A stretch of DNA of 32,000 nt. It comes from Pseudomonadota bacterium (GTDB lineage Bacteria > Pseudomonadota > Gammaproteobacteria > Burkholderiales > Burkholderiaceae_D). The position numbers were made by a program, and so were the translations under genes. The notes beneath the pieces were generated by a model. That model was not told the origin of the DNA. It was given only the letters and a program-made list of their open reading frames with translations, and did not search any database. The DNA is taken from contig JBKPEJ010000023.1 in the NCBI GenBank assembly GCA_046728335.1, forward strand, positions 208,151-240,150. The letters run 5' to 3'. This document shows positions 3,888 through 29,750 of the stretch, in pieces. Position 1 is the stretch's first letter. Every line of letters begins with the position of its first letter.

Positions 3888-4458
3888 GTTCGATCGGAAT
3901 GGCCCAGGTCGTCGAAGCTTCTGCGTTTTTGCAACATTTCCGGGCATTGAACACAATTTTCTGCCTGACCATGATGCAGATGGAAGGGGCAACGAGGAGT
4001 GCTTTCCGTCGTCGCCGCGGAAAGTCGCTTATTGATTGTTCAAGAACTATCTGGATGACACCCGCCACATCAACTATGCCATGGTCGCGCGCCGATCAGT
4101 CATCCCCGCATAGGTTTTGCTCAGCCCCTCTGGGAGCGGCCATTTGGCGGACAATTGAGTCTGCACCAAAGAAGCGTTGGCGCTCCAATTCTACCTCCCT
4201 AGCGAACGAAAAAGGTAGGGCCGGCCACGCAGGGGGTATGCGCCGAATGGCTACCCTGCTGCCGGCGTTCGGTGTTTTGGTGAGCGGCCACTACCGACTT
4301 ACGCCGCGAACACTATCCCTCTCGGGCGGGGTGAACTCCCTAACTACATTACCTCGTCGCCTGAGCACCAATTTGCACCGGCGTGAACGCCGATTGAAAT
4401 CAGCGCCCTAATTACGCTGCACGGTTCCTCTAGAGTTCGCTAGGAGGATCGCCTGGCG

Positions 4459-15676: not shown

Positions 15677-15752
15677 GCGGCTGTAGCTCAGTGGATAGAG
15701 TATTGGCCTCCGAAGCCAAGGGTCGTGGGTTCGATCCCCGCCAGCCGCACCA
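15677..15752 (+). tRNA. tRNA-Arg (anticodon CCG), CCA encoded
   Basis: I folded the 76-nt cloverleaf by hand: acceptor gcggctg/cagccgc, D-stem gctc/gagt, anticodon stem ttggc/gccaa with loop ctCCGaa, T-stem gtggg/cccgc with loop ttcgatc, discriminator a, then cca. Confidence 0.93.
15705..15752 (+). repeat. attL core (3' 48 nt of the intact tRNA-Arg)
   Basis: ggcctccgaagccaagggtcgtgggttcgatccccgccagccgcacca is identical to 29440-29487. Confidence 0.9.
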
Positions 15753-15822
15753 CATTTCTTCAATCAAATCAGGTAGTTGGCCCTTGCGATGCATTGCGTT
15801 GTTAAGCAATTTTGAGCATTGA

Positions 15823-15895
15823 TTGGCACACTGACTGTGCCAAAATTGTGCCGAAATCCCACAGAATCAAATAGTTAGCCGATGCTGTTGGCACA
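15823..15895. promoter_or_regulatory. Cluster of TTGGCAC/GTGCCAA motifs near attL (candidate integrase arm-type sites)
   Basis: ttggcac at 15823, gtgccaa at 15837, gtgccga at 15848 and ttggcac at 15888. The 17-mer tgtgccaaaattgtgcc (15836-15852) recurs exactly at 29372-29388. Confidence 0.5.
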
Positions 15896-15959
15896 GTGCT
15901 CACCAGTGTGCGCTCGAGTGCGCAACTAGGAGAGACACTCGAGTCCATTGATGCAGAAT

Positions 15960-16565
15960 CTAAGTGTCCGCAATCAAGCCGCCCTTTACCAATTTCAGAT
16001 CCAGACCGGCAAGGATCGATGCCAGAAAATTGCCGATGATCATGTTGGCTACTTCGAAGGACAATTGAGCAGTTTCCGGAGAGACAGGCTCCCCTCTATG
16101 GACGAAGCTATTACGGGCTTTCTGAACGTAAGTAAGCTCTTCTCGAAGTGTCTTCGTGTGGCTCTCAATACGAAATACGTTGAAATCGATCTTCGCGTAT
16201 TCTGCAAGTAGTCGCGCAAGCAGAGGCGTAAAGCTTCCAAGCCCATTCTGCTTTAACGCGAGCTCCGACACGAGGTCGGCAACTGAATCGTTGTGCACAA
16301 GTCCGTAGATCACGGGCTTCAGAAGGGCTGCCTTCAGTCCCAGCTCGATTGCAGTAATAAATAGCACGGTCGCGGCCGAGGGCGAAACTGCTAAGAGTGC
16401 TTTAGCCTCTTTGTACACAGCAAGCACTGGTACAGCGATGTCGGGGTGAGACGTGTAGTAAGACCGCATTCGCTCGAAAGTGAACTGATCAATGGCTTCG
16501 TGAGACACGCGTTCAACCAAATCGATGTACCACTCATCGCGGGCGATCTCATCAGGAGTATCCAT
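15960..16565 (-). CDS. Hypothetical all-helical protein with HEPN-type Rx4H motif (putative RNase, prophage cargo)
   Basis: 201-aa ORF with an ATG start. The C-terminal third contains VQKARNSFVHRG, that is R-N-x3-H, the canonical Rx4-6H HEPN catalytic motif. No partner gene is adjacent. Confidence 0.55.
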   Translation of the reverse strand: MDTPDEIARDEWYIDLVERVSHEAIDQFTFERMRSYYTSHPDIAVPVLAVYKEAKALLAVSPSAATVLFITAIELGLKAALLKPVIYGLVHNDSVADLVSELALKQNGLGSFTPLLARLLAEYAKIDFNVFRIESHTKTLREELTYVQKARNSFVHRGEPVSPETAQLSFEVANMIIGNFLASILAGLDLKLVKGGLIADT

Positions 16566-16621
16566 TCTTATTCTTCCAGGGCGGCGCTAGAACTAGCGGT
16601 ATAGGTCAACGTACAGCCTCA

Positions 16622-17143
16622 TCACTTGGCGAACTTCTCTCGACGCGCATCTTGCTTTGCAGCCGCCTCAAGTCGTGCAAAGGTCTCTTCTTGCTCGTTC
16701 CGTATCGTGTCCAGCATCGATAAAACTCCCGAATGATGCGCGAAAGCCTTGGCGCGGTTCGTAGTGTACTGGCGCGTTTCGTCATCGTAGTAATCCTCTG
16801 GCTGCTCGTCCACGCCCCAAGAATTATCCTCTCGCCATTTTTGCACTTCGATTTGCTTTAGGAATAATGCACGAGCGGCATCTCGTGCCAGCACGACCTT
16901 GTCTGCTGTTGGCACCCGATGCCCGTGCGGCAAATCGGGGACGCCGGTCACAAGCCAAAAAGCATACTCGGGCCAAGCGGCGCCGATCCCTTCGATCATA
17001 TCTGCGGAGGCTTTTCCGCCTCGGTTCCACCAGGTGCGCCAGGTCTCAGCCTTAATCCTTGTTGCCTCTTCAAGGGCGACAAATCGCCGTGTAGGTGGCG
17101 TGACGGTTTCGATCAGATGACGAAGTCGTTCAGACAAATTCAT
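16622..17143 (-). CDS. Phage CI-type repressor-like HTH protein
   Basis: The N-terminus LSERLRHLIE...FVALEEATRIKAETWRTWWNRGGKASADMIEGIGAAWPEYAFWLVTG resembles the phage CI repressor HTH domain, which ends in WL.TG. It is divergent from the Xis gene. I place the start at the ATG at 17143, preceded by AGGAA; the track start at 17161 is a TTG. Confidence 0.65.
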   Translation of the reverse strand: MNLSERLRHLIETVTPPTRRFVALEEATRIKAETWRTWWNRGGKASADMIEGIGAAWPEYAFWLVTGVPDLPHGHRVPTADKVVLARDAARALFLKQIEVQKWREDNSWGVDEQPEDYYDDETRQYTTNRAKAFAHHSGVLSMLDTIRNEQEETFARLEAAAKQDARREKFAK

Positions 17144-17244
17144 AAAAATTCCTAGTGACAACAGTTCAATTGCGTATTATTATGTGTCAACTGACACGCT
17201 TTGCGACACATCAACAGTGTTGCGCGGCTCAAAATAAGGCAATT
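17144..17244. promoter_or_regulatory. Divergent repressor/excisionase control region with inverted repeats (candidate operators)
   Basis: A 6-2-6 inverted repeat, gtgtca-ac-tgacac, at 17184-17197. An imperfect inverted repeat, gcgacac-N7-gtgttgcgc, at 17203-17225. caacagt is repeated at 17159 and 17212. Confidence 0.5.
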
Positions 17245-17562
17245 ATGGGCGACATTTTGAAGCTTGACCATCGACAAGATGATTCCACTCCCGAAATCCT
17301 GGCCGTCGAGCATCTAGCCCAACTGATTCACAAATCGCCGTCCAGCATTCGCAGTGATGCGTCACGTAATCCCTCAGCACTTCCCCCAATTTGCCGCCTC
17401 CCGGGCAATAAGCGCTTGCTCTGGCGCCGCGAAGACGTTTTCTCGTGGATTTCACGCTTCGTCGAGCTCGTACCCCATGCACGAGCAGAGGCGATCGCCG
17501 TAATTGCAGTTCCAAAGAAACGCGGTCGCCCGCGCAAGACTGAATTGCGGAGCAACGCGTGA
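17245..17562 (+). CDS. AlpA/Xis-family excisionase or transcriptional regulator
   Basis: From the ATG at 17245 (AAGG upstream), 105 aa. ILAVEHLAQLIHKSPSSIRSDASRN...LPGNKRLLWRREDVFSWI matches the AlpA/phage excisionase HTH pattern (...rW...dv..W.). The position mirrors the repressor/xis pair of Pf-type prophages. Confidence 0.7.
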   Translation: MGDILKLDHRQDDSTPEILAVEHLAQLIHKSPSSIRSDASRNPSALPPICRLPGNKRLLWRREDVFSWISRFVELVPHARAEAIAVIAVPKKRGRPRKTELRSNA

Positions 17563-17987
17563 CCTTCTACAAAATTGTCTGCGGTGCCGGCGTGCTTGTC
17601 CAGGGGGAGTCACCTGATTTCCTTTTGTGTGTTGAACAGGCAAGAGAAGCTAAATTTGCTTGGGCGGTTCGCCTTCCTGAAAGCACTTTGCGAGTTCATT
17701 TTTTCTATCCGAATCGCAAACGAGTCCCATCCTCGGATGTCGCCGCGGCAATGCGCGCGCTTGAAAATCCATCAATTGCGGCTGCTGTAGCTCGCCGTCG
17801 TGCCGTAGCCACGCAAGTTCCGTCTGCCCGCAGCGAAGCGAGGACAGCCGGAACTTGTGCGGCTGCGGGCCGGGGTTTTGCTGTTGCAGTTGACTTTGAT
17901 TTTCGTCAGGCGGGCGTGGTAGCACCGCCTGACAGTCTCACCGGTGGGAATTCCGATGTGGATGCCTCGCTTCGCGGCGGGGATTGA
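17559..17987 (+). CDS. Hypothetical ORF (weak; the region may instead be non-coding origin/packaging DNA)
   Basis: GTG start overlapping the xis stop. The second half is Ala/Arg-rich and looks non-coding. It contains a 9-bp-stem hairpin at 17905-17933. Confidence 0.25.
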   Translation: MTFYKIVCGAGVLVQGESPDFLLCVEQAREAKFAWAVRLPESTLRVHFFYPNRKRVPSSDVAAAMRALENPSIAAAVARRRAVATQVPSARSEARTAGTCAAAGRGFAVAVDFDFRQAGVVAPPDSLTGGNSDVDASLRGGD

Positions 17988-17992
17988 TCTTT

Positions 17993-19180
17993 ATGGCATA
18001 CGACACCGTCGCAATTAGATCGCCGTACCTGGGCGAATCGGAAATTAACCATATTGAATTGCAGTGTTTTCGTCGCACAGGCGTCGAAATGACTACGGGA
18101 CACGAAAAATACGTGATTTTCACTGGTGAATTGGAGTCGTCCGCTGATGCTCGCATCGGACTTGTGGTCAAGCGAAAAGAGTATGTGCTGGATCAGAACG
18201 GACGACCGGCTGAGGTCGAGTGCGATCCATACCTACTTGTCGAAGCATCTGTTCACAAGATGCAGCTCGGGCACAACATCTACGGCGGTCCAACAAACTT
18301 TCAGAAAGCCTGCCGCGAACTGGTCACGTTAATCGAACGACTGCTCGAAGTCGAATTGCCGAGAGCCGATGTATGGACTGTGCGTCGGACGGATGTCGCC
18401 CTCGTATTCCGAGTAGCGGAAGAAGGATGTAAGGAATTTTTTGCGGGAATGAAGAATTCAAATTTTCCACGACGGGGACGCGGGAAAGCGTTCTACAACA
18501 TGGGGTTCTATTTTCCTGGGAAGACGACGACTCTCAAGGGATACCACAAAGGCACAGAGTTCGCCCTTCACGACAAGGCGCGGCTTCGGGGGTTTTACCG
18601 GAACTACTTCATGTACAAGTTTGGAAAAAATGATCTAAGAAATCATGAGCGCCTTGAAAAAAAGATTGAGGCGCTCCAACGACTTGCGAATAGTCGCTTG
18701 CGCTTGGAAGTGGAGATCCACGCGCCGAAGCTTGAATACGATTTTGGGAAATGTCCACGGGTTGATGAGGTATCGGATGCGTATTTGCAGCAAGTCTTCG
18801 ACACGGAAGTCGAGAAGCTGCTCAGGGAAGGAAAACAAGGTATGGACAGCGTAAGGACGAACAGAGCGGTGCTTCGCAGATTGAAAGAGGTGTACGGGGA
18901 TTTGAATGGCCAGAGGCTGCACGGATTTTGGTCGATGCTTTCAACAGAGGGAGATGAATTTACGCGAGGCGAGGTGCCAAGGGCGTCTTTCTATCGATAC
19001 CGAAAGCAACTGGAAGAGGCGGGCGTGTCCTGGCGAAATACAGATTTGAAGGTGATTGCAAACGATGGCGCTTTGCCGTTCGATTTCGCTCCGATTCGAT
19101 CAGATAGGCGATTGTGCTTTTTACCGGCGCGCAATCGTGAGGAGTATCAAGTAAGCCGGAAAATGTTGCAAGCAGCGTAA
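17993..19180 (+). CDS. Filamentous-phage replication initiation protein (gene II / Phage_CRI-like)
   Basis: 395 aa from the ATG at 17993. The N-terminus MAYDTVAIRSPYL is of the type seen in gene II/X-family rolling-circle initiators. It lies directly upstream of the ssDNA-binding and coat genes, as in Cf/Lf/RSS-type inoviruses. Confidence 0.65.
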   Translation: MAYDTVAIRSPYLGESEINHIELQCFRRTGVEMTTGHEKYVIFTGELESSADARIGLVVKRKEYVLDQNGRPAEVECDPYLLVEASVHKMQLGHNIYGGPTNFQKACRELVTLIERLLEVELPRADVWTVRRTDVALVFRVAEEGCKEFFAGMKNSNFPRRGRGKAFYNMGFYFPGKTTTLKGYHKGTEFALHDKARLRGFYRNYFMYKFGKNDLRNHERLEKKIEALQRLANSRLRLEVEIHAPKLEYDFGKCPRVDEVSDAYLQQVFDTEVEKLLREGKQGMDSVRTNRAVLRRLKEVYGDLNGQRLHGFWSMLSTEGDEFTRGEVPRASFYRYRKQLEEAGVSWRNTDLKVIANDGALPFDFAPIRSDRRLCFLPARNREEYQVSRKMLQAA

Positions 19181-19191
19181 GGAGATTTGTG

Positions 19192-19536
19192 ATGGCGGAA
19201 TCGAATGCAGTAGTGAAGTTGGAAGAAAAGAAGAACCACAGTGCCGTGAAGGCGATGCATGTAATGGTCACTGGACGTATCGAAGGGTCGAAATCATATG
19301 ACGGGAAGCGATACACGCAGGTGATGACGCCGGCCCCCGATGCCTACTCCCGGCCGCAGTTGGTCGAAATTCGAAGCAAATCGAAGCTTGGCGAAAAAGG
19401 CGAAGAGATTTCTTGCCAGTGTGTATTGGGAGGATTTCAGCGCAAGCCTTACGAAACGAAGGACAAACAGTCCGGCGAGATTGTCAAAGTCGTCCCGGTC
19501 GAGCACACGCTCGATCTCGCTGAGGCGAGTGACTAA
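19192..19536 (+). CDS. Putative ssDNA-binding protein (gene V-like)
   Basis: 114 aa with a strong RBS (TAAGGAG, 7 nt upstream). Its size and its position between rep and the coat genes match inovirus g5p. I recognise no motif. Confidence 0.45.
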   Translation: MAESNAVVKLEEKKNHSAVKAMHVMVTGRIEGSKSYDGKRYTQVMTPAPDAYSRPQLVEIRSKSKLGEKGEEISCQCVLGGFQRKPYETKDKQSGEIVKVVPVEHTLDLAEASD

Positions 19537-19548
19537 GGAAGATCGGAT

Positions 19549-19812
19549 ATGGCCGTGGGGCAGACGCAAACCATCTTGATATGCGCGGCATCGGATGTAG
19601 CGCAAGCGCCGTGCCCAGCAGGTATGGCCCTGACAACCGTTCAAGGATATGTACTTGACCCCAACCAAGCTGGGAACATCGAAGCGCAAAACGCCGAGTT
19701 TGACTACGCGTACGCAGCGGGAATTTGGTCGATGGCATTTACGTTTGTTGTCGGTCTCTATCTCGTTGCTAAGTCGGCCGGCACGGTGATGAACGCTATA
19801 CGCAATTTGTAG
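19549..19812 (+). CDS. Small phage membrane protein (minor coat/assembly candidate)
   Basis: 87 aa with RBS AAGGAAG and a C-terminal TM helix (IWSMAFTFVVGLYLVA). Confidence 0.55.
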   Translation: MAVGQTQTILICAASDVAQAPCPAGMALTTVQGYVLDPNQAGNIEAQNAEFDYAYAAGIWSMAFTFVVGLYLVAKSAGTVMNAIRNL

Positions 19813-19857
19813 TACTGGCCGGGCAGTTTCCCGGTATTTCAATCGTAGGGGTATCAC

Positions 19858-20076
19858 ATGAACAAAAACATTCAACGCGGTTTGGCACTGGTCGGCGCTT
19901 TGGGCTTTTCGGCGATGGCTTCGGCGCAAGCGGCTGGTCCGGACATGACCGGCCTGACCTCGGCCGTTGATTTCGGCACTGTCACCACGGCCATCATGGC
20001 AATCGCCGGTCTGCTCGCGGTCGTGTATGTGGCGATCAAGGGCGCCCGTATCGGCCTGTCAATGCTCAAGCGCTAA
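19858..20076 (+). CDS. Inovirus major coat protein (g8p/CoaB-like)
   Basis: 72 aa with a signal peptide ending ASA-QA. The mature peptide has an acidic N-terminus (D,D), a hydrophobic core (AIMAIAGLLAVVYVAI) and a basic C-terminus (KGARIGLSMLKR). A strong terminator follows, as after gene VIII in Ff phages. Confidence 0.85.
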   Translation: MNKNIQRGLALVGALGFSAMASAQAAGPDMTGLTSAVDFGTVTTAIMAIAGLLAVVYVAIKGARIGLSMLKR

Positions 20077-20096
20077 GGCGGCGGCGCTCGATGGCG

Positions 20097-20122
20097 GGGG
20101 TGCTTCGTGCACCCCTTTTTTT
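20097..20122 (+). terminator. Rho-independent terminator after the major coat gene
   Basis: ggggtgc-ttcgt-gcacccc followed by T7, 20 nt after the stop. Confidence 0.85.
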
Positions 20123-20162
20123 CGAATGAATTTCGCGGAGGGGAAATTTCTAAGGGGGCGTG

Positions 20163-20249
20163 ATGACTATCAACCAGCTTTGGTATTTCGGCGTGTTTGT
20201 TTGGGGTCTTGTGTCCGCGTGGGCGGTTATTGAGGGATTGAAGGATTGA
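20163..20249 (+). CDS. Unlisted 28-aa hydrophobic peptide (g7p/g9p-like minor coat or PfsE-like exclusion peptide candidate)
   Basis: The ATG at 20163 is preceded by AAGGGGG. It translates as MTINQLWYFGVFVWGLVSAWAVIEGLKD, a single aromatic-rich TM helix. The stop at 20247-20249 lies 2 nt before the g3p-like ATG. It is below the 60-aa cut-off of the ORF track. Confidence 0.5.
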   Translation: MTINQLWYFGVFVWGLVSAWAVIEGLKD

Positions 20250-20251
20250 AC

Positions 20252-21610
20252 ATGAGAGTTTTTTTTCTGTGGGTATTTCTCGCTATCTTCTCGGCGGGAC
20301 AGGTGCGTGCTGCGGCTGTTCCAGTATCGCGTACTCAGAATGCGCTTTCGGGCGTAATTCAAACCAAAATGGCAAATCGCGGATTTGCTGCAAACGATCC
20401 TCGCTGGGTTACAACGCTCCAGACTGTTGGATCGGGCATAGGAGGCGCTGCCGCCGCTGCTGCCGTGGTTACTCTTGCTGGTGTTACAGCTCCTGCCTGG
20501 GTGACCGCTGGCGCGGTTGTGGGATTGACAGCGCTGTTCGCGGCGGGAATTGATTTGGCAATCGACGGCGTCCGCTGGCTACTAAATCCGGATGGCACTG
20601 TGACTGTGGGCGTAACGGGCGCTGGTGGTGGCTCGCTGCTCGTGGGTGGCGCTTTTGTACGAGGTTCGGCTGGTGGCTATTACCCTGCGCCGCACACTAA
20701 GGATCAGGCTGCAGATGATTGGGCGAGACTGTGCGGGAACTCGACCGAATGCGGGTTCGAACTGAAATTAGATAAGGTCACACAAGGCACGAGTGGGTCG
20801 GATGTAATCTTTACATCTGTCTACGATGTTTGGGATCCTCGCGGGTTCATGGTGACCAACTTCGGCTTGACCGAATACCCAAGGGGCTCGCCGGTATCTT
20901 GTGGTCCGGGTCTTGTGTACTTCCAAGGCAATTGCGTAACGATGAAAACTCCGCCGACCGGCCCGACACCGAAGCCGGTCTCGGATGCTGTAGCAAGTAT
21001 TTCGGCAGCGGACAAGGGCAGGGCTGCAAATCCGATTTTGATCGCCGCGCTGGCAAACGCTGCTTGGCAAAAAGCAGCGGCTTCACCTGGCTACGCTGGG
21101 CTGCCCTACGACCCGGCAAATCCGATTACGGCAGGTGATGCGACAGTGTGGCAGGCGCAGAATCCCACCAATTGGCCCAGCGTCGGGGATCTTGTAATGC
21201 CACAGGCCGCGCCCGCGGGTGGCACCGCATCGACTCCGTTCACACTGCCCACGGACACGTCGCCCGTTTCCAGCACCGATCCCTCAACTTCCCCAAGCGC
21301 TGGAATCAATCCTTCGACGCAGCCTTTAATTAACCTGGGCGTCGATCCGGGTATTGGGGCCCCTGTGCTGGAATCGACGCCAACTGCACAAGCGATTCTT
21401 TCGCCTGTGCTTGGGTTGTTACCGTCGTTGAAGACCTTTGTGGTTCCTGCTCACCAGTCCACTTGTCCAGTTGGTTCAGCGAACCTGTTCGGTAAGCAGT
21501 TATTGCTCGACGGTCACTGTGCGCTGACCGAAGGAGCACGCCCAACGCTTTATCCGGTCATGGCGTTCGTGTGGTTGTTCGTCGCACTTTTAATCATCCT
21601 CGCCGCGTAA
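20252..21610 (+). CDS. Minor coat/adsorption protein (g3p/CoaA-like)
   Basis: Signal peptide MRVFFLWVFLAIFSAGQVRA, Gly/Ala-rich and Pro/Ser/Thr-rich linkers, and a C-terminal membrane anchor (VMAFVWLFVALLIILAA). It lies directly after the major coat gene. The ATG at 20252 is preceded by AAGGA. Confidence 0.7.
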   Translation: MRVFFLWVFLAIFSAGQVRAAAVPVSRTQNALSGVIQTKMANRGFAANDPRWVTTLQTVGSGIGGAAAAAAVVTLAGVTAPAWVTAGAVVGLTALFAAGIDLAIDGVRWLLNPDGTVTVGVTGAGGGSLLVGGAFVRGSAGGYYPAPHTKDQAADDWARLCGNSTECGFELKLDKVTQGTSGSDVIFTSVYDVWDPRGFMVTNFGLTEYPRGSPVSCGPGLVYFQGNCVTMKTPPTGPTPKPVSDAVASISAADKGRAANPILIAALANAAWQKAAASPGYAGLPYDPANPITAGDATVWQAQNPTNWPSVGDLVMPQAAPAGGTASTPFTLPTDTSPVSSTDPSTSPSAGINPSTQPLINLGVDPGIGAPVLESTPTAQAILSPVLGLLPSLKTFVVPAHQSTCPVGSANLFGKQLLLDGHCALTEGARPTLYPVMAFVWLFVALLIILAA

Positions 21611-21623
21611 TCGGAGGCATCAA

Positions 21624-21911
21624 ATGTTTGGAATTGTTCTCTCTGCACTCAACGTCCTACTCGGCTTCATCTTCCGTTCGGTTGTAATCAAGTTTGCTGT
21701 GTTTTTCGGCCTCTTCTTTGTGACCACCGAATTCATCTCGGTTCTTTCAGGGCTGCTGCCCACCAGTAGCGCGCTGACAGGCTCGCTCGGTGGCATTCCC
21801 GCTGGCGTTTGGTACTTCCTCGATCTATTCAATGTGTCTGCGGGTTTGCCGATGTTGCTGTCCGCTTGGGCCACTCGATTCATCATCCGCCGCATCCCAG
21901 TGATTGGATAA
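21624..21911 (+). CDS. g6p-like minor coat membrane protein (DUF2523-type)
   Basis: 95 aa with GGAGG RBS and three hydrophobic segments. Its position between the g3p-like and Zot genes is as in Pf and related phages. Confidence 0.7.
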   Translation: MFGIVLSALNVLLGFIFRSVVIKFAVFFGLFFVTTEFISVLSGLLPTSSALTGSLGGIPAGVWYFLDLFNVSAGLPMLLSAWATRFIIRRIPVIG

Positions 21912-21915
21912 TTTC

Positions 21916-22068
21916 ATGAGCCCCTCTATGACCTACACATGGGATTGGCTGCAAGAGCTTTCTCAGATGTGCACGTTCTCCTTCTCCGATTATTTGGTGT
22001 GTTGCTGTGTGATCGGAGTTGGGGTGCTGGCTTGGGGAACTTGGCGAAGGAGCTGCCGTGCCGATTAA
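21916..22068 (+). CDS. Possible 50-aa Cys-rich small membrane ORF overlapping the zot start
   Basis: MSPSMTYTWDWLQELSQMCTFSFSDYLVCCCVIGVGVLAWGTWRRSCRAD. No clear RBS. It fills the 146-nt gap between the g6p-like and zot genes. Confidence 0.25.
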   Translation: MSPSMTYTWDWLQELSQMCTFSFSDYLVCCCVIGVGVLAWGTWRRSCRAD

Positions 22069-23212
22069 CGTATACACCGGGCTGATGCGATCAGGAAAAA
22101 GCTACGAAGTTGTATCGGAAGTCATCGTGCCTGCAATTCGTTCAGGGCGCAGAGTCGTGACAAATGTTGACGGCATCTCCGAGGAGAAGATACACGACTA
22201 CCTACGGTCCTTGCATTCTACCGACGACGATTCGTTGTTCGGGAAAGTAATACACGTCGAGAACGCGCAGGTGTTCGATGAGGAATTCTTCCCTTACTAC
22301 GATGATGCCAAAGGTGTTCACACCGACACGACCGTGCAGCCAGGTGATCTCGTCTGCATCGACGAAGCATGGCGATTTTGGGGAGCGTCAGGCAGCAAAA
22401 TTCATAAGAATCATAAATCGTTCTTCCTGGAACACGGCCATTTCACGCACGAGAAGACGAAGGTCGCCTGTGACTTGGTGCTGATGATCCAAGATATGTC
22501 CACCTTGAATCGGTTCGTCAAGAACGTCGTCGCGTTCAACTTTAGAACCCACAAGAAGGTTGCGTTGGGGATGGGGAACACCTACAGCCTGAATATGTGG
22601 GAAGGGCACAAGCAGTCCAACGCGACACTTATTGGAAATTGGGTACGACGGTACAAAAAGGAGGTATTCCCGCTGTATTCGAGCTTCAAGGGTGGCGCGC
22701 AAGGCGTCATGGTTAATGCTGATCGGCGCCAAAATATATTCACAAATAGAAAGCTGTGGTTCCTAGTTGTTGTCCTGGTGGCTGGCGGCTGGCTTGCCGG
22801 CACGAACATATGGAAGTTTTTTCATCCTGCTCCGGTTGGCAAAGACGGCAAGCCTCTTTCCTCGACCGTCGCGAGTGTGAATAGCTCGTCTGCTCGGCAA
22901 TCAGCACTTCCAGCCGGTGCGGGGACAGCACGGGCATCCAGTGGCATCGCCGTCATCGTTCCGGTAAGCGACGACTGGCGACTCGCAGGAACGTACAGCA
23001 CGAACGGAGAAAATTGGGTAGTCCTTACAAATGCGGCCGGAGCAATCAGAGTAGCGTCGCCGTCGCAGTTCCAAAATTTCGGAATCGCGCAAATTGGTGA
23101 GGTTGACGGCGCCAGAGTTAGTCAGTGGTCCGGGCCGTCGCGCACAATTTCCGGATCGAGCACGGTTAGCGCCCCCGGTGCAGCCGCCGCGCCCGTTTTT
23201 TTTAAGAAGTGA
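22058..23212 (+). CDS. Zonula occludens toxin-like assembly ATPase (g1p)
   Basis: N-terminal P-loop INVYTGLMRSGKSYEVV, Walker B-like LVCIDEAW, and a central TM helix (LWFLVVVLVAGGWLAG), as in g1p/Zot. I place the start at the GTG at 22058, 5 nt after GAAGGAG; the track TTG at 22019 is less likely. Confidence 0.85.
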   Translation: MPINVYTGLMRSGKSYEVVSEVIVPAIRSGRRVVTNVDGISEEKIHDYLRSLHSTDDDSLFGKVIHVENAQVFDEEFFPYYDDAKGVHTDTTVQPGDLVCIDEAWRFWGASGSKIHKNHKSFFLEHGHFTHEKTKVACDLVLMIQDMSTLNRFVKNVVAFNFRTHKKVALGMGNTYSLNMWEGHKQSNATLIGNWVRRYKKEVFPLYSSFKGGAQGVMVNADRRQNIFTNRKLWFLVVVLVAGGWLAGTNIWKFFHPAPVGKDGKPLSSTVASVNSSSARQSALPAGAGTARASSGIAVIVPVSDDWRLAGTYSTNGENWVVLTNAAGAIRVASPSQFQNFGIAQIGEVDGARVSQWSGPSRTISGSSTVSAPGAAAAPVFFKK

Positions 23213-23215
23213 ACG

Positions 23216-24496
23216 ATGAATAGAATTCTGTCCCTCTGCGTGCTGCTGTTTTCGCTGTCCGGGCTCGCCACAGCCACGCCGTCCGTACCTGCGGCTTCGA
23301 GCGCTCTGTTACCAACAAAATTCGATTTTCGCGGTGTTAACGTCGCGTCTGTTGTCCAGCTGATCTATGCTGAAGCGCTACATGAATCGTATGTGATAGA
23401 TCCGGAAGTGCTCATAGATGCGCGTACGGTATCGTTTCGATTTGAGGGGAAAAAACGTGACGTCCCAGTTTTTGTAACGGCCTTTTTTGATTCGCTCGGG
23501 TTGACGGTGATCCGAAGAGGTGGCATCGATTTCATCGCAAAAAAATCTCCGTCAATCGCTGCTCCTGGCAAAGAGGCGGAAGTGTTCATCTACCGACCTC
23601 GCTTCCGCGATGGCGCATATCTAGTGGAACTCTTGTCGCCGCTTGTTTCAGGCTCGTTCACTTCTAAGCGAGCCGTGCATGGATCAATCGTTGGAGACAG
23701 CGCAGCGACTGACAAAGTTGCACCCATGGGTTCCGCCGCCGCGTCAGTAGACCGCCAAACTGACACTTTGGTTTTTACAGGTTCGTTAGAGGACGTTGTG
23801 AAGCTTAAGAAGGTCTTGCCGCAGGTGGATCTTCCAGTCGGCGATGTCCTCGTTCGCGGGGTGTTGTACGAGGTGCAGACCGACGAAAAAAGCGGGTCTG
23901 CATTTGGGTTGGCGTTAAATCTGTTGCGCGGGTCGGTCAAGTTAGGGCTGGGACCGCTGACAACTTCACCTGGTGAAGCCTTCGTCGCTTTAAGGAACAA
24001 CACCATAGAGGCGGTCGTATCTGTGCTCGCCCAAGACTCTCGCTTCAAGGCTGTTTCGAGACCGATGTTGCGCGTCACCTCCGGCGGTGCAGGGCGCTTC
24101 ACTGTCGGACAGGATGTGCCCGTCTTGGGCTCGGTTAGCTATCCCGGCTCAGGACAAGCACCAGTGCAGTCGGTGACGTATCAATCCAGCGGCGTTATCT
24201 ACGACGTTAGGCCAGTCGTACATGATGCTTCAATCGAAGTCTCGGTGATGCAGCAGACATCGAACTTTGTCCCAACAAACACGGGAGTTGCTGGGTCTCC
24301 CACCCTTATTAAGCGAGAACTCAAATCCAATCTAAGTCTGACCGATGGAGAGATAGCGGTGATGGGGGGCTTGCGGGATTTAAAGGAAGCTCGGTCGAGC
24401 GAAGGGCTTTCGTTCCTTCCGTCCTTCTTGCGCACAAAGTTGGGCGAGAAGACCAGCGTGGAAATCCTGTTGATCCTTCAAGTAACGAAACTCTGA
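23216..24496 (+). CDS. Phage-encoded secretin (g4p-like)
   Basis: 426 aa with a signal peptide. The C-terminal secretin-domain pattern is present (GQDVPVLGS ... SNLSLTDGEIAVMGGLRD ... PSFL). It starts 4 nt after the zot stop. Confidence 0.8.
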   Translation: MNRILSLCVLLFSLSGLATATPSVPAASSALLPTKFDFRGVNVASVVQLIYAEALHESYVIDPEVLIDARTVSFRFEGKKRDVPVFVTAFFDSLGLTVIRRGGIDFIAKKSPSIAAPGKEAEVFIYRPRFRDGAYLVELLSPLVSGSFTSKRAVHGSIVGDSAATDKVAPMGSAAASVDRQTDTLVFTGSLEDVVKLKKVLPQVDLPVGDVLVRGVLYEVQTDEKSGSAFGLALNLLRGSVKLGLGPLTTSPGEAFVALRNNTIEAVVSVLAQDSRFKAVSRPMLRVTSGGAGRFTVGQDVPVLGSVSYPGSGQAPVQSVTYQSSGVIYDVRPVVHDASIEVSVMQQTSNFVPTNTGVAGSPTLIKRELKSNLSLTDGEIAVMGGLRDLKEARSSEGLSFLPSFLRTKLGEKTSVEILLILQVTKL

Positions 24497-24627
24497 ACGT
24501 CGGGGCAACTCGTCGAGGTAACGTCGAGACGGCCAGATGCAATTCCTGCCGCTGTCCACACTTGGCGTGAATAGCATCGTTGCCCGCTAGTAATTTCGCG
24601 GAGGCGAAACTTTGGTCGCCGAAATAA

Positions 24628-24834
24628 TTAGCCCTTGGTCGCTTTGATTGCGGCCGCGAGTGCCAGGATTAGCTCCTGTTGCTCTGCGCTCGAGATTTCG
24701 CCGTTGATATACCGATCATTGATTGCTTGGGCTTCCGGGCCTATCGTAAATCCTTCCAGCCGCACATTAGCCGTTGCAAAAGCGACAGCGCGTGCCCGTT
24801 TGGCCTTTTCTTCGGGAGAAATTGCGCTAGTCAT
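24628..24834 (-). CDS. VbhA-like antitoxin domain protein (orphan; no Fic partner in the window)
   Basis: 68 aa from the ATG at 24834. RARAVAFATANVRLEGFTIGPEAQAINDRYINGEIS matches the VbhA-family pattern (..A.asvrLEG........l..y..GEis). The 38-codon N-terminal extension in the track looks spurious. Confidence 0.6.
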   Translation of the reverse strand: MTSAISPEEKAKRARAVAFATANVRLEGFTIGPEAQAINDRYINGEISSAEQQELILALAAAIKATKG

Positions 24835-25227
24835 ATGGGGCCTTGTAAATGGAATTTCACGGCAGCGAAAGGCCGGTTCACCTTGTCGTCCACGTAGCTT
24901 TTCGTCAGATTGCACGGATGATGCGACATTTTGCCCGATACCGTGCAAACGAGTGTGGCTAATTCATCTCACTGGGGAGGTGAGCGACAACGGTTTCGTT
25001 GACAAATTAGCTTAGTCGGTCAACACGGCAGGCGCAACTGATACGTCAGGGGGCGGGGATCATTATTTCTTCATGGCAATTGATTGCCTCTCGATAAATC
25101 TTTCCGAAAAAACCCATTTGTGAGATGATATTTGGTCATAAGCGGGAACTACAGAGTGTCACCGCTACCTAGGGGAAGTGCGCGGCCCGCGATCACGCGC
25201 AAAATTAAAGCTTTTGATGGATGTAAT

Positions 25228-26307
25228 ATGAGCCAGCTTCCTCCGGTAGTTCCAACTCTTTCGGTTGACGAACTCGTGTCTGCATTGGAACTTCGGACAT
25301 CGTGGACTTTGATCAGGAAGGCGCTGAAGTTGCAGAAGCTGCCAGTCGGTCTGGGTTGGAAGGATCTGAAAGGGCACGCGGCGGAGAACAACGCCGTAGG
25401 CGCAAAAATCCGTGTTTTTTTACAAGAGTATTTTGAAGAGTCAATCATAACTGGCGAGCGCTTCGTTCAACTATACAGCGTTGAGAAGGGTTTGGTTTCC
25501 AGCATAGTTTCGACAGCAAAGACTGTAACTGTGCCATCGTCCGCATTCTCAGCAAAGTACCCACTTCCTCTGGATGTGAATATTCTGTCTGGTGCACCAA
25601 GCGACCCGACCCTCTGTGGCGTGCGTACTCATACGAACGGCGACATATCGTTTATCTTTTGTTCTGCTGGCTACTATGACGACAAAAACTCATACGACTA
25701 TGGTCAGCTCTCAGCACTTGTGCAACAGACTTACAGCGGTATTGATAAGCTAATTACTGTCCGCAAGTCGTACTATCAAGCGTATGACGTGATAACGCTC
25801 CGGGTGGGACTGGAGCGTCTGGAAATTTCAGTCGATCAGCCGGGCAGACTCGGGTCTGCACGTCTCGAAACGAGGCCTATGGAAATTCTTAGCGCGTGCG
25901 CTTTGTCCGTCCAGCAGCTTCAAGGATTTGGAGCGCGTCCGCCGGAAAACTTGTTCGCCGCCATCTCGTCGATGTACAGCGCAGCTAACGAAGGAAAGGT
26001 TACCGCCTTGGCGTTTCGTACAACAACCGGCTCGGTGAAGCGAGAGCGAATGACCACTTCTAGTGATGATCTGCGCGACGAACGATTCCACCATGCAGGT
26101 ATGGTCGCCGTTGGACAGGACATCAAACCGTACGAACTCGAACTCGAATGGAACTTCACTTTGCCCGATGGCAGCGCTGACCTGAAACTTGCAGGGATGT
26201 TGAGTCAACTGGCATCGGCAACTCCTACACTTCATGGCTGCTACGTTTCCGCTCACCAGTCCAGTTCGTTCGAGAAGGCACTGAATCGTTTGGTTACTTA
26301 TATCTGA
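25228..26307 (+). CDS. Hypothetical protein, cargo cassette gene A (no recognisable domain)
   Basis: 359 aa from the ATG at 25228 (the track TTG at 25132 is less likely). I see no P-loop or other catalytic motif. Confidence 0.6.
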   Translation: MSQLPPVVPTLSVDELVSALELRTSWTLIRKALKLQKLPVGLGWKDLKGHAAENNAVGAKIRVFLQEYFEESIITGERFVQLYSVEKGLVSSIVSTAKTVTVPSSAFSAKYPLPLDVNILSGAPSDPTLCGVRTHTNGDISFIFCSAGYYDDKNSYDYGQLSALVQQTYSGIDKLITVRKSYYQAYDVITLRVGLERLEISVDQPGRLGSARLETRPMEILSACALSVQQLQGFGARPPENLFAAISSMYSAANEGKVTALAFRTTTGSVKRERMTTSSDDLRDERFHHAGMVAVGQDIKPYELELEWNFTLPDGSADLKLAGMLSQLASATPTLHGCYVSAHQSSSFEKALNRLVTYI

Positions 26308-26312
26308 ATATT

Positions 26313-26729
26313 GTGACACCGCAGAACAAAAATGAAGCGATTGAAGTACTGACCTCCCTGTGGAAGGGGCGGCCAGAGGAGGCGTTCGGCTGCGCGATCA
26401 TTGACTACCTCTCAGATCATCTCGACGCACGACATATTCCATTTTCTGAATTTTTTCGCATTGCGTTGGATGGCAAGCCAGCGGATCAAGAGGTCGTACT
26501 GAATATTGTGAATTATCTGAGCGGCGCTCAACTACACCTGCTTGCAAAGGGCTTCGAATACATTGAGGATGATTCCGTAACGGAGATCGATTCGCAACAA
26601 GCTCGCGCTGCCTATGATGCGAGTATCAACCCGTTAACTGGGCAGTTTGATGAGGCAGTAAAAAAGAAGATTTTTGTTTATTTCATGCCGTCCGAGGCGG
26701 CAAAGAATTTGTTGGGGATCGCAGGATGA
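26313..26729 (+). CDS. Hypothetical acidic protein, cargo cassette gene B
   Basis: 138 aa with a GTG start 5 nt after the gene A stop. No in-frame ATG is available. I recognise no domain. Confidence 0.5.
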   Translation: MTPQNKNEAIEVLTSLWKGRPEEAFGCAIIDYLSDHLDARHIPFSEFFRIALDGKPADQEVVLNIVNYLSGAQLHLLAKGFEYIEDDSVTEIDSQQARAAYDASINPLTGQFDEAVKKKIFVYFMPSEAAKNLLGIAG

Positions 26730-27442
26730 CGCGCCTCAATGGTAAAGATGTCTCGCTGGAAGAGCTCGGTGCTCTCGTCGCTAACAGTGAGTTCGCGTTT
26801 GACATGTTGCGGCACGAATTTGCGAATGACTACGACGAATTCGTGGAGACCTTGTACGACAATATCGATAAGGCCATTGGAAAACTCGAGCAAAATCCGC
26901 AGTTTTATGAAGATGCGGAGGAAGACAAGATCACGCACGAAATCGCCAACATGCTTTCAATGGCGGGCTACGACGCCCGCCAAGGGGAGACCAGCGGTGG
27001 GAACGTGGACCTCACTGTGAAAGGCTACAAGTCTGCTTGGTCTTGGGTTGGCGAAGCCAAAATCTATAAGACAATCGATAATTTGCGGGAAGGATTTCTG
27101 CAACTATCGACAAGGTACCGCAACGCCAGCCCAGTACATGCTAAGTCTGGGATCTTAGCCTACACAAAAAGGAAAGACGCAGCCGGGTGTTTGAAGGAAT
27201 GGCTAGAAGAAATTGGCAAAATGGGACTTGAGGATTTTTCGGTTACACCTTGCACCAGACGAGGCCCACTCGCTTTCTATACTACGCACAAGCACGAAGC
27301 GTCAGGGCTACCTGTCCAGGTCCGCCATTCGGCGATCTCGCTCTACCATTTGCCGAAGGACAGGAGCGGACTGACAGCGCAGAAATATCAAGATGCGCAT
27401 GCGGCCGAGGCCGCTGCCAAAGCAAAGGCTGCCGGGCCGTAG
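26726..27442 (+). CDS. Putative PD-(D/E)xK-fold nuclease, cargo cassette gene C
   Basis: 238 aa. The ATG overlaps the gene B stop (ATGA). The ordered motif helix-E (ITHEIANML) ... GGNVDLTV ... VGEAKIY fits the E / D / ExK arrangement of restriction-endonuclease-like nucleases. Confidence 0.55.
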   Translation: MTRLNGKDVSLEELGALVANSEFAFDMLRHEFANDYDEFVETLYDNIDKAIGKLEQNPQFYEDAEEDKITHEIANMLSMAGYDARQGETSGGNVDLTVKGYKSAWSWVGEAKIYKTIDNLREGFLQLSTRYRNASPVHAKSGILAYTKRKDAAGCLKEWLEEIGKMGLEDFSVTPCTRRGPLAFYTTHKHEASGLPVQVRHSAISLYHLPKDRSGLTAQKYQDAHAAEAAAKAKAAGP

Positions 27443-27512
27443 CGTGACGGCACCCAGGTGCATGTAGTCGCACGCTGGTGTTATTTGATTTGCCAACCAT
27501 ATCGGAGAAGTT

Positions 27513-28325
27513 TTGGACACCGCCACTTGTACTGAAGACGGGCATACCTACACGGCGGTGGAGTTCGCTGCGCTGGCCCCAGACACCTTGGAACGACGCC
27601 GTCGAGTACTGCGCTGTGCTGAATGTAATGGCCCAGCATTTTTCCGGAAACGTTCACGTAGCGGCCGGGGGGCATGTTTTGGAGCCAGGCCACATGCTGA
27701 GGGTTGCAATCAAGCGACAGCAGATAATGACTTGCTAATTCCTGGAGCCGGCGATGACCAAGATGAGCTTTATAACCCTGGTGATCGTATCGTTATAGAC
27801 CTTGGATATGGCGCGCAAGAACCGCAGGTCCATCTCGATCAGGATGCTAGGCAGCCGAGGAGGGCGCGGGGTGGCCGCTTCGTAGGGGACGGCAATAGGG
27901 GAAACGCAGAGATGCACCGTCGCTTAAGCACGATGCTGCGAACCCTCGTGGACGCACCAAATTTTCGATACTCTGATCAAATAATTGCCGTGGGGGATCA
28001 CCCGGAATTGCCCGCTCGCGATTTCTTCGTAAATTTTTCTGATGTCACTCCGCAGTATTCAGGTCAGTTTCGCGGGTATTGGGGGTTATTGTCCGATGCT
28101 CGTCGCGGCGCAGACAACACTCTTTGGCTGAACAGCGGAGGGCGCACAAGTATGAGTGTCTGCCTCCCTGAAGAATTTGTCGATGTCATCGCACAGCGGT
28201 ATCGGCTAACAGAAGATGAAGATTTTTCCGGGGCATATTTGCTGGTCCTGGCCACTCTGAGCGTGTCGCAGTATGGAAAAATCTTCTGTGTCGTTAACGA
28301 TCCCGCTGTGATGTCTCTTCGTTGA
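27513..28325 (+). CDS. Hypothetical protein with N-terminal Cys/His cluster (zinc-ribbon-like), cargo gene D
   Basis: 270 aa. The only possible start is the TTG at 27513, 5 nt after GGAGAAG. The N-terminus reads CAEC-x17-C-x5-H-x3-C. The rest is unrecognised. Confidence 0.5.
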   Translation: MDTATCTEDGHTYTAVEFAALAPDTLERRRRVLRCAECNGPAFFRKRSRSGRGACFGARPHAEGCNQATADNDLLIPGAGDDQDELYNPGDRIVIDLGYGAQEPQVHLDQDARQPRRARGGRFVGDGNRGNAEMHRRLSTMLRTLVDAPNFRYSDQIIAVGDHPELPARDFFVNFSDVTPQYSGQFRGYWGLLSDARRGADNTLWLNSGGRTSMSVCLPEEFVDVIAQRYRLTEDEDFSGAYLLVLATLSVSQYGKIFCVVNDPAVMSLR

Positions 28326-28357
28326 TTAGTCGCCGTAGTATTGGTTTCTGAACCGTT

Positions 28358-29338
28358 TTATTTGAGTTTCTTTGCCAAGTCTTCGGCGCGAAGATGTGTA
28401 TATCGCTTGAGCATATCGAGGGTCTTGTGGCCAGTGATGGCCGCAACCTCCATCACGTTCAGCCCTTTTTCAAATAGTCGACTTGTGGCCTCATGGCGAA
28501 GGTCATGAAACCTTACACCCACTATGTTGGCACGATGCGATTCGCACGCGCGCTCAAATGCTTGGCTCATTGATTCTGGCCTCAGCTCGAAGACGGCGCC
28601 TTCCTTCTTAATTCCAAACTCCTTGAGTGCCTTAATTGCGGCTTTCGAAAGTGGCACAGTGCGTGGTACGTCCGTCTTGGTCTTGGGAAGGTGCGCAGTC
28701 TGCTTCTTCAAATCTATTTCATCCCAGGTTAGGGATGCCAGTTCGTTTCTGCGCATGCCGGTTTCGACAGCAATCTTGATGATGGTGCGTAGCTCTGGTG
28801 ATTCCGTGGCATTGAGAATGTTCGCAATTTCTGTTTCAGGGACACGTCGGTCCCGTCCGCGAGGTTTGATCGGTTTCCGAACCTGGGCAGTTGGTAAGCC
28901 GCCTGGCAGAGCAATGCCCCAGTCCATCGAAGCTGTCTTTAGCACGCGGTTCAGCAGGTTGAGTTCATGAATGACAGATTGAGGTCCGACTACCTTCAAG
29001 CGGCGATCGCGAAACTGGGCCACCTGCGACGAAGTAAGGCTCGCCATGCGGTAATCACCGAAGGCGTCGGTCAACGTCTTGATCCGAGATTTGTCGGATT
29101 GTTCGCTGCGTTTCGTCGGCAGCACATCGCTTTCGAAACGACTCAGCACATCCTTGATGAAGGTGGCTTCGGCCTCGCTTCGTGACACGAACACCCCTCG
29201 CACCATTTCTGATTCAACGACCGTCGCCCAATCTTCCGCAGCAACAAGCGAAGTGAACGTCTTCGTCTGGGTGGGATATCCGCGTTTCCGGATTTGTACG
29301 TGGTATTGCTTGTCGCCTTTTTTTCGGATCGTTGGCAT
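28358..29338 (-). CDS. Tyrosine recombinase / phage integrase
   Basis: The N-terminus MPTIRKKGDKQYHVQIRKRGYP is typical of this integrase class. The C-terminal catalytic signature is HDLRHEATSRL ... ITGHKTLDMLKRYTHL (H-x-x-R ... H ... Y). It lies adjacent to attR. I prefer the ATG at 29338 to the TTG at 29353. Confidence 0.92.
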   Translation of the reverse strand: MPTIRKKGDKQYHVQIRKRGYPTQTKTFTSLVAAEDWATVVESEMVRGVFVSRSEAEATFIKDVLSRFESDVLPTKRSEQSDKSRIKTLTDAFGDYRMASLTSSQVAQFRDRRLKVVGPQSVIHELNLLNRVLKTASMDWGIALPGGLPTAQVRKPIKPRGRDRRVPETEIANILNATESPELRTIIKIAVETGMRRNELASLTWDEIDLKKQTAHLPKTKTDVPRTVPLSKAAIKALKEFGIKKEGAVFELRPESMSQAFERACESHRANIVGVRFHDLRHEATSRLFEKGLNVMEVAAITGHKTLDMLKRYTHLRAEDLAKKLK

Positions 29339-29371
29339 GCGAGTGTGCGGCAAATTGATAGAAAGCAGCAG

Positions 29372-29390
29372 TGTGCCAAAATTGTGCCAA
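29372..29390. promoter_or_regulatory. GTGCCAA direct repeats between int and attR (candidate arm-type sites / int promoter region)
   Basis: tgtgccaaaattgtgccaa. The first 17 nt are identical to 15836-15852 at the other prophage end. Confidence 0.5.
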
Positions 29391-29439
29391 TAAAGGTAAA
29401 TTATCTTTAGAACGCCTAGGCACTGTAGAGGCTATTTTG

Positions 29440-29487
29440 GGCCTCCGAAGCCAAGGGTCGTGGGTTCGATCCCCGCCAGCCGCACCA
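29440..29487 (+). repeat. attR core (duplicated 3' 48 nt of tRNA-Arg)
   Basis: The 48-nt match to 15705-15752 is exact. Similarity to the tRNA degenerates to the left (tagaggctattttg versus tagagtattg), so this is not a functional tRNA. Confidence 0.9.
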
Positions 29488-29682
29488 GTTTTTTCCTTTT
29501 AAATCAATAAAGTTAGCACTCCTGTACTTTCGGTGCTGGGTTACGTCTTGCCAACCTTCTGCCCGAATCGCGCTAACAGCCGCGCCGTCCCCGCTAAATC
29601 AACCGCTCTTCGGGTTCAGCCGAAACAGTGTTCGCAAGCGGTGAATTGGTCAATAGTCGCATCATTTCAGATTCCCCCCAGC

Positions 29683-29750
29683 GCGGCTGTAGCTGAGTGA
29701 ATAGAGTATTCGCCTACGAAGCCAAGGTTCGATTCCCGTCAGCCGCACAA
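29683..29750 (+). pseudogene. Decayed tRNA-Arg copy (8-nt deletion removing variable loop/T-stem, several substitutions)
   Basis: It aligns with 15677-15752, including the upstream leader (ttcagattccccccagc versus ttcagaaattccccccagc). Differences: c>g and g>a in the D-arm, g>c and c>a around the anticodon (loop ctACGaa), loss of gtcgtggg, and 3' end caa instead of cca. Confidence 0.75.

Follow-up and report, generated by a model that had tools for sequence, protein, structure and literature searches.

Lambda RexA is the DNA-binding sensor of the lambda exclusion system, and the report of its crystal structure assigns RexA, RdgC, and the kinetochore proteins Iml3/Chl4 to a common DNA-binding fold (PMC11077077). 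The locus between the replication and portal genes of P2-like elements is a defence hotspot, and Rst_3HP was shown experimentally to protect against phage P1 (Rousset et al. 2022, PMC9122126). Filamentous Pf prophages also carry defence cargo such as KKP, which defends against lytic phages (PMC11341870). Here we analysed a stretch of 32,000 nucleotides (nt), hereafter the window, from a Burkholderiaceae_D bacterium (assembly GCA_046728335.1, contig JBKPEJ010000023.1, positions 208,151 to 240,150 of the forward strand). The subject is a three-gene cassette, A-B-C, inside an inovirus prophage in this window. With moderate confidence, we propose from comparative genomics and structure prediction that A-B-C is a mobile conflict module, most likely for defence against phages or other mobile elements, with A as sensor, B as adaptor, and C as nuclease effector. 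The genes and their junctions are as follows (aa, amino acids; ORF, open reading frame).

25228..26307, + strand: gene A, 359 aa, proposed as a DNA-binding sensor with a predicted RdgC/RexA fold (ORF list; PHROG phrog_12777)
26305..26315, + strand: A-B junction, gene A stop TGA at 26305-26307 and gene B start GTG at 26313, with 5 nt between
26313..26729, + strand: gene B, 138 aa with a GTG start, acidic product (isoelectric point, pI, 4.7), proposed adaptor (PHROG phrog_11490)
26726..26729, + strand: B-C junction, ATGA stop/start overlap
26726..27442, + strand: gene C, 238 aa, the proposed effector, predicted to be a PD-(D/E)xK-type nuclease (PHROG phrog_9664)

A preliminary description made from the letters of the window had reported three same-strand ORFs of 359, 138, and 238 aa, with the GTG at 26313 and the ATGA at 26726-26729, and all of these positions were reproduced. 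The gene A ORF opens upstream at TTG 25132, and the ATG at 25228 gives 359 aa. The 359-aa product is identical to the database protein P0040 (359 aa), and its homologues are 350-368 aa long. The ATGA overlap is consistent with translational coupling of B and C. A, B, and C are real genes because each has homologues (E-values to ~1e-100) in more than 100 loci.

The cassette resembles lambda RexA/RexB in that it would be prophage cargo for the benefit of the lysogen, with a sensor coupled to a separate effector. However, RexB is a four-helix membrane protein, whereas here a soluble adaptor and a nuclease-type protein are predicted. The membrane ion-channel partner of RexAB is absent, as no transmembrane segment was found in A, B, or C (maximum Kyte-Doolittle 19-residue window ≤1.05). 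RexA-like proteins lack sequence similarity to A, and the two described by Rousset et al. show none. RdgC is the best structural match of A over ~300-340 columns in both the PDB and BFVD, but it has ~300 residues (chains 301-306) compared with 359 in A, and its gene stands alone, while B and C come after A in every case.

Receptors of the STAND (signal transduction ATPases with numerous domains) and NLR-like (nucleotide-binding, leucine-rich-repeat) type, such as Avs and bNACHT, are approached by cyanobacterial NACHT and HEAT proteins of 855-1226 aa that end in the C domain and have the architecture typical of these receptors, whereas the window cassette has no NTPase or P-loop. The effectors of characterised Avs and bNACHT proteins are mostly N-terminal, while C is C-terminal in these fusions. 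Type ISP restriction-modification enzymes (LlaGI/LlaBIII type) are related to the cassette through alphaproteobacterial members in which B is the terminal domain and a free C gene comes next; a helicase and a methylase are lacking in the window, where A occupies that position. We read the parallels with RexAB and with nuclease-armed STAND proteins as similarity of logic, not as membership.

Rst_3HP likewise lies in a P2-like hotspot, and its three genes have no recognised domains. An identity with it was suspected from the Klebsiella copy of the cassette, which lies in the P2 hotspot, and was rejected: the published Hp1-3 (Table S2A; ~335/355/225 aa vs 359/138/238 aa) are unrelated to A, B, and C, and hmmsearch with the A, B, and C profiles gave ~0-2 bits against them. 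The Pf-type cargo shares with the cassette the accessory slot of an integrated inovirus. The difference is that KKP consists of kinases and a phosphatase and PfiTA is a two-gene toxin-antitoxin pair, and that the cassette is not inovirus-specific.

Distribution of the cassette

Iterative profile searches over six-frame ORFs were used to collect loci, with sources including a scan of one genome per species (80 loci) and IMG/VR (37 loci). Colinear A-B-C was found in 110 of the 128 loci having any match. The 18 exceptions comprise 4 loci cut by contig ends, 9 with C fusions, 4 with B fusions, and 1 without a detectable A. The most frequent junction is a 4-nt overlap at both boundaries (38-39 of the 110 loci each, with 38 for B-C), and the A-B spacing is between -100 and +20 nt in 108 of the 110. 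The hosts are beta-, gamma-, and alphaproteobacteria, many cyanobacteria, and two metagenome-assembled genomes (MAGs), one of the Flavobacteriaceae and one of the Acidimicrobiales. A-B-C is thus a self-contained, horizontally mobile unit whose genes are inherited together.

The phage carriers are diverse. When GenBank phages were searched with C by tblastn, homologues appeared in very different elements: seven Stx1a-converting lambdoid phages, a P2-like Klebsiella element, an autolykivirus-like Vibrio element, the Moraxella phage Mcat13, and Acinetobacter prophage records. The inspected records keep the A-B-C order, with genes of ~340-370, 130-150, and 210-275 aa. None of the 37 IMG/VR cassette contigs has a homologue of the Zot, secretin, or G2P protein of the window. 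The preliminary description had asked whether the three genes occur together outside this phage lineage, and they do so in unrelated phages, on plasmids, and at phage-free chromosomal sites.

E. coli carries the cassette in 23 of 5426 complete genomes. In lambdoid prophages (two E. coli genomes and phage Stx1_499), it follows the Q antiterminator gene directly, in the opposite orientation, and stx1, stx2e, or no toxin gene is found downstream. The Q gene adjoining the cassettes of E. coli Shiga-toxin prophages controls toxin expression. In the two E. coli prophage loci L086 and L087 (~4334-5392), the Q gene lies on one side of the cassette and a DNA methyltransferase gene and tRNA genes, in one of the loci also the stx2e genes, lie on the other; this is the variable region that controls Shiga-toxin expression. 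The Klebsiella P2-like element carries the cassette between the replication gene and the portal gene, and the Vibrio element carries it beside the integrase. In phage Mcat13 (KR093637.1, locus L004, 3410-5537), the cassette is unannotated in the deposited genome.

Carriers other than phages were also found. In the closest relative of the window cassette, whose C is 89% identical, the three genes stand alone between housekeeping genes, and the vicinity is free of phage genes. The Burkholderia cenocepacia copy follows sspB and adjoins an integrase fragment, and the Paraburkholderia copy is near GmrSD and a WYL-type (WCX-domain) regulator. Fourteen plasmid records have the cassette. On a 6.1-kb mobilisable Col plasmid, A-B-C is the sole cargo besides rep, mob, and a RelE/ParE toxin gene adjoining a NadS-family gene, the last two forming a probable toxin-antitoxin pair. 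This plasmid, Klebsiella pneumoniae pRGF99-1-6115bp (NZ_CP075557.1, L130), has more than one third of its length taken up by A-B-C; its gene A spans the record origin, and the distributed gene table does not list it.

Among 148 immediately flanking ORFs, phage integrase is the commonest Pfam family (7). The mobile context of the cassette is clear, and its positions in a hotspot, at moron sites, and on many carriers indicate accessory cargo.

Protein families and domain swaps

Neither Pfam 2025, NCBIfam 20.0 (June 2026), nor PADLOC-DB v2.0.0 (2023) gave a significant match to A, B, or C. Their PHROG matches are all families of unknown function (A, phrog_12777, 9e-47; B, phrog_11490, 5.5e-18; C, phrog_9664, 9.7e-54). 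None of the three has a P-loop or matches phage structural or replication proteins, and no domain recurred when 22 C-family and 25 B-family members were scanned with Pfam. The Pfam match of the window C to TCAD2 (E-value 1.6e-3) is sub-threshold, occurs in 1 of 22 family members, and was taken as chance; the PADLOC matches of the E. coli, Klebsiella, and Vibrio homologues (PDC-S54, CARF, and Cas9) all have E-values >0.007 and were regarded as noise. RefSeq (September 2026) labels all three E. coli cassette genes (WP_000646552, WP_001041173, and WP_000969103) as 'hypothetical protein'. A nucleotide search of the phage collection with the cassette DNA returned nothing useful. Searches of open-access full text (subscription literature was outside their scope) gave no account of the A-B-C cassette. 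We therefore consider the cassette probably undescribed. It appears to be a multi-gene, mobile-element-borne system with a putative nuclease effector, made from three unrecognised protein families. Homology to a known defence system or to a phage structural or replication protein, named in the preliminary description as a point against its proposal, was not found with PADLOC, NCBIfam, Pfam, or the Rst_3HP comparison.

The AlphaFold2 model of A has a predicted local distance difference test (pLDDT) score of 87 and a predicted template modelling (pTM) score of 0.85. In the PDB, the best Foldseek match is E. coli RdgC (2owl, E-value 4e-4, probability 0.99) over ~300-340 aligned columns with template modelling (TM) scores of 0.25-0.42, and the list also holds RdgC 2owy and CENP-N chains. 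CENP-N is, we take it, the human counterpart of Chl4; if so, it belongs to the RdgC/RexA fold and the match list is internally coherent. In BFVD, 7 matches of A reach E-values ≤1e-3; those with a name are the 'exonuclease' of phage PTXU04 (1.2e-5) and a 'recombination-associated protein' of Hafnia phage Enc34, and a phage RdgC is lower in the match list. A further profile search for A gave at least two additional proteins. Conserved residues in A include D203, Y250, R283, and G291. From the model, A is predicted to have an RdgC/RexA-type fold. B has no Pfam or PDB profile match. The preliminary description had found no motif that assigns A or B to a family, which is still true for sequence families and the P-loop but, given this model, not for the predicted fold of A.

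For C, 13 residues (E66, D67, G92, D95, W107, E110, A111, K112, G123, Q126, L127, R130, and Y131) are invariant in 22 diverse members and again in 37. The motif is also invariant in a core alignment with one NACHT-fused and one S24-fused member. The AlphaFold2 model of C (pLDDT 90, pTM 0.84) shows helix 66-79, strands 83-86, 95-99, and 106-113, helix 117-129, and strand 140-147. The core order is therefore alpha-beta-beta-beta-alpha-beta, with D95 on the second strand and E110/K112 on the third. Two regions of gene C are distinguished.

26726..26830, + strand: N-terminal extension, residues 1-35, a beta-hairpin and two helices, present in free-standing C and absent from NACHT-HEAT fusions
26921..27118, + strand: catalytic-core region, in which E66-D67 starts helix 66-79, D95 starts strand 95-99, E110-A-K112 lies in strand 106-113, and Q126 lies in helix 117-129; R130/Y131 are also assigned here

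C has both the PD-(D/E)xK signature, with an upstream E and a downstream Q, and the core topology of these enzymes, and it matched none of the Pfam nuclease families. By motif and topology, C is predicted to be a PD-(D/E)xK-type nuclease without significant similarity to an established member. The nuclease core suggested earlier from the order of E, D, and E/K residues is thus strengthened by the invariant motif and the modelled topology, but searches of solved structures did not support it. A full-library hidden Markov model (HMM) search placed 656 clusters at 50% identity in the C family (E-value ≤1e-3), of which 261 were retained at E-value ≤1e-30.

Both C and B are found attached to other proteins. 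In nine cyanobacterial loci, the C domain without its first ~35 residues is the C-terminus of NACHT and HEAT-repeat proteins of 1000-1200 aa, and neither A nor B is present at these nine loci. The full-library search gave further NACHT-HEAT-C proteins of 855-1226 aa. The NACHT-HEAT-fused proteins match the C profile only from position ~31-37, and their tblastn matches start at residue 36-38. Residues 1-35 of C are likely a B-docking segment, judging from this distribution.

The whole B domain ends a complete Type ISP restriction-modification enzyme in three alphaproteobacterial loci (L070, L071, and L080), with the domains Mrr_cat_2, ResIII/Helicase_C, ISP_coupler, N6_Mtase, and Type_ISP_C. 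In a fourth B fusion (L068), B ends a ResIII helicase protein. The Type ISP-B proteins have ~1770 aa (for example, L070 4614-9923), and the helicase-B protein has 1026 aa (L068 6855-9935). In each of the four B-fusion loci, A is missing and a free C gene directly follows, overlapping by 4 nt. The free and the fused forms of B can be aligned over their full length. A Type ISP enzyme that ends in B and is followed by free C implies that B may recruit C to a DNA-tracking enzyme; no Type ISP enzyme with such an added adaptor and extra nuclease is known to us from earlier work. Locus L129 (984-2054, ENA metagenome contig, protein P0227) encodes C with a C-terminal LexA-type Peptidase_S24 domain (3e-25) after B and a truncated A, which hints at a link of the nuclease with RecA/SOS-type signalling.

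These domain swaps are the strongest functional clue, and such modularity is typical of immune systems. In the simplest reading, C would be the output, B would connect C to a DNA tracker or sensor, and A would be one of several interchangeable inputs. The earlier suggestion that the two partners of the nuclease act as sensor or regulator gains support from the fusions of B to Type ISP and helicase proteins and of C to NACHT-HEAT and S24 proteins.

Carrier prophage and neighbouring genes

The cassette of the window is carried by an inovirus prophage integrated at a tRNA-Arg gene. The features of the prophage are listed below as context.

~15705..29487, no strand assigned: carrier inovirus prophage, tRNA-Arg-integrated
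17984-19180: G2P replication protein (Pfam)
21624-21911: DUF2523 protein (Pfam)
22019-23212: Zot (Pfam)
23216-24496: secretin (Pfam)
24628-24948, - strand: VbhA-type antitoxin-like ORF (Pfam PF18495, 1.5e-11), between the secretin gene and gene A
27513-28325, + strand: gene D, 270 aa, with a Cys/His-rich N-terminus, between gene C and the integrase gene
28358-29353, - strand: tyrosine integrase

The 3' 48 nt of tRNA-Arg(ccg), at 15705-15752, recur at 29440-29487. This repeat identifies the att sites and delimits a prophage of ~13.8 kb. Together with the Pfam matches, it bears out the placement in the preliminary description, between the morphogenesis module (the secretin gene ends at 24496) and the integrase of an inovirus prophage. 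The cassette had also been judged by eye to be more AT-rich than its surroundings. Its GC content is indeed lower (0.511, vs 0.541 in the inovirus core and 0.574-0.593 in the flanking chromosome), but the difference is small and marginal.

Gene D had been considered as possibly belonging with the cassette. As a fourth component it was rejected: a homologue occurs in none of the 128 cassette loci, and gene D therefore lies outside the system. It has no match in Pfam, PHROG, PADLOC, or NCBIfam, its relatives are confined to close kin (for example, the Telluria MAG protein MEJ7804784.1), and it appears to be separate lineage-specific cargo. No Fic/VbhT-type toxin gene adjoins the VbhA-type ORF at 24628-24948, so this ORF looks like an orphan antitoxin-like gene.

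Two further repeats were seen in the window. A 61-nt copy (92%) of the 5' half of tRNA-Arg is at 29671-29731, ~180 nt past attR; ARAGORN made no tRNA call for it, and it may be what is left of another tRNA-Arg copy or of a previous integration event. The 21-nt repeat AATTTCGCGGAGGGGAAATTT, which has hairpin-like symmetry, occurs at 20129-20149 and 24592-24612 with the copies 90% alike, the second lying ~100 nt 3' of the secretin gene. These copies may be inovirus terminators or regulatory hairpins.

Proposed function and alternative explanations

In the proposed mechanism, the soluble RdgC/RexA-fold protein A would detect an infection-specific DNA state such as foreign ends or replication or recombination intermediates. 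The small acidic protein B would couple A to C, probably via residues 1-35 of C. C, with D95/E110/K112 as putative catalytic residues, would then be released or clustered and cut DNA, and the outcome would be destruction of the invader or death of the infected cell. The data directly show the genes with their tight coupling and joint inheritance, the range of unrelated mobile carriers, the invariant motif, the modelled folds, and the fusions; DNA sensing by A, contact between B and C, nuclease activity of C, and phage protection are inferred. The window cassette most likely rides as lysogen-benefiting cargo on the tRNA-Arg-integrated inovirus. Its candidacy as an undescribed defence or exclusion system, put forward in the preliminary description, is supported by comparative genomics; the cassette is no inovirus speciality, and defence itself is a reading drawn from sequence comparisons.

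Several observations weigh against this explanation. The TM-scores of A with RdgC are low (0.25-0.42), RexA is absent from the top 50 PDB matches of A, and neither Pfam nor a PDB profile search gave sequence support for RdgC or RexA in A. With C, Foldseek found no significant nuclease among solved structures (best E-value 0.02, unrelated folds), hmmsearch of PDB sequences with full-length and core profiles gave nothing relevant, and hhalign against the Mrr domain of the Type ISP fusion partners gave a probability of 0.1%. A promoter/terminator scan of the locus gave no signal above chance. Known defence genes are only occasional neighbours, at 2-5 of the 148 flanking ORFs per family (mad2 5, PDC-S03 3, PD-T4-6 2, and MkoA 2), as raw counts without a baseline. 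PADLOC-DB of 2023 covers the defence systems of its time, and later descriptions could escape it.

The same cassette could be a tripartite toxin-antitoxin or addiction module, in which B and/or A would restrain C as a DNase toxin and the main role would be to stabilise the carrier element rather than to stop phages. The cassette is always on mobile or accessory DNA, its genes are tightly coupled, and a nuclease-type effector with a small acidic partner would suit such a module; Pf-type prophages carry toxin-antitoxin cargo at this end (Pf4 PfiTA). We nevertheless consider addiction unlikely as the main function. The 6.1-kb Col plasmid already has its probable RelE/ParE pair, the closest relative sits in a phage-free chromosomal site, and A would be a large antitoxin, at 359 aa and with a fold predicted to bind DNA. 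B is found joined to restriction enzymes, and C is fused to NACHT-HEAT without A or B, which suggests that C is controlled in cis by a STAND sensor, following the logic of an immune receptor. Addiction and defence roles are not mutually exclusive.

That the cassette is an accessory of recombination or DNA repair, with an RdgC-like RecA modulator and a nuclease serving carrier DNA metabolism or host recombination/SOS, seems to us quite improbable. In its favour, RdgC and phage 'recombination-associated' proteins lead the structural matches of A, a LexA-type S24 peptidase is joined to C in one variant, and PD-(D/E)xK enzymes include recombination exonucleases. But the carriers differ in their replication and recombination needs (a single-stranded DNA inovirus, lambdoid and P2-like phages, a tectivirus-like element, and the Col plasmid), and phage-free sites are added to them. 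The lambdoid copies are antisense to the late operon after Q, like a lysogeny-expressed moron, the NACHT-HEAT and Type ISP fusions are unlike a housekeeping role, and few genomes have the cassette, in a patchy pattern (23 of 5426 E. coli genomes). We give very little weight to a counter-defence or inter-element weapon that attacks host defences or resident prophages and plasmids. Known anti-defence proteins are usually small single genes, and the fusion partners here are host immune-type sensors (NACHT-HEAT and Type ISP enzymes). The cassette also occurs in chromosomal islets and beside GmrSD. What speaks for a weapon is that the cassette is phage- and plasmid-encoded with a nuclease-type effector, and that RdgC-type proteins interfere with RecA (summarised in PMC11077077). 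Part of this explanation overlaps superinfection exclusion, which belongs to the defence module we prefer.

Within the defence explanation, a broader and more tentative reading is that B-C is a portable adaptor and nuclease output. Its inputs would mostly be A, as a DNA clamp of the RdgC/RexA fold, with Type ISP enzymes or a helicase in some alphaproteobacteria, and C would be wired to NACHT-HEAT in cyanobacteria. We regard this as possible, though on balance short of probable. If true, it would mean a new widespread defence family with an RdgC-type infection sensor, and a hitherto unknown route by which restriction enzymes bring in a second nuclease.

If the defence role is confirmed, a moderately large family that current annotation leaves unnamed would be added, with ~650 nuclease clusters at 50% identity in several phyla. 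The RdgC fold would gain a second immune-sensor role beside lambda RexA, and a modular adaptor-nuclease pair would be common to stand-alone cassettes, Type ISP enzymes, and NLR-like receptors. A tractable version is available in model hosts, because the cassette occurs in E. coli Shiga-toxin prophages and on a small mobilisable Klebsiella plasmid. For inovirus biology, the cassette would be, if confirmed, a further example of filamentous prophages that pay their way with host-protective cargo.

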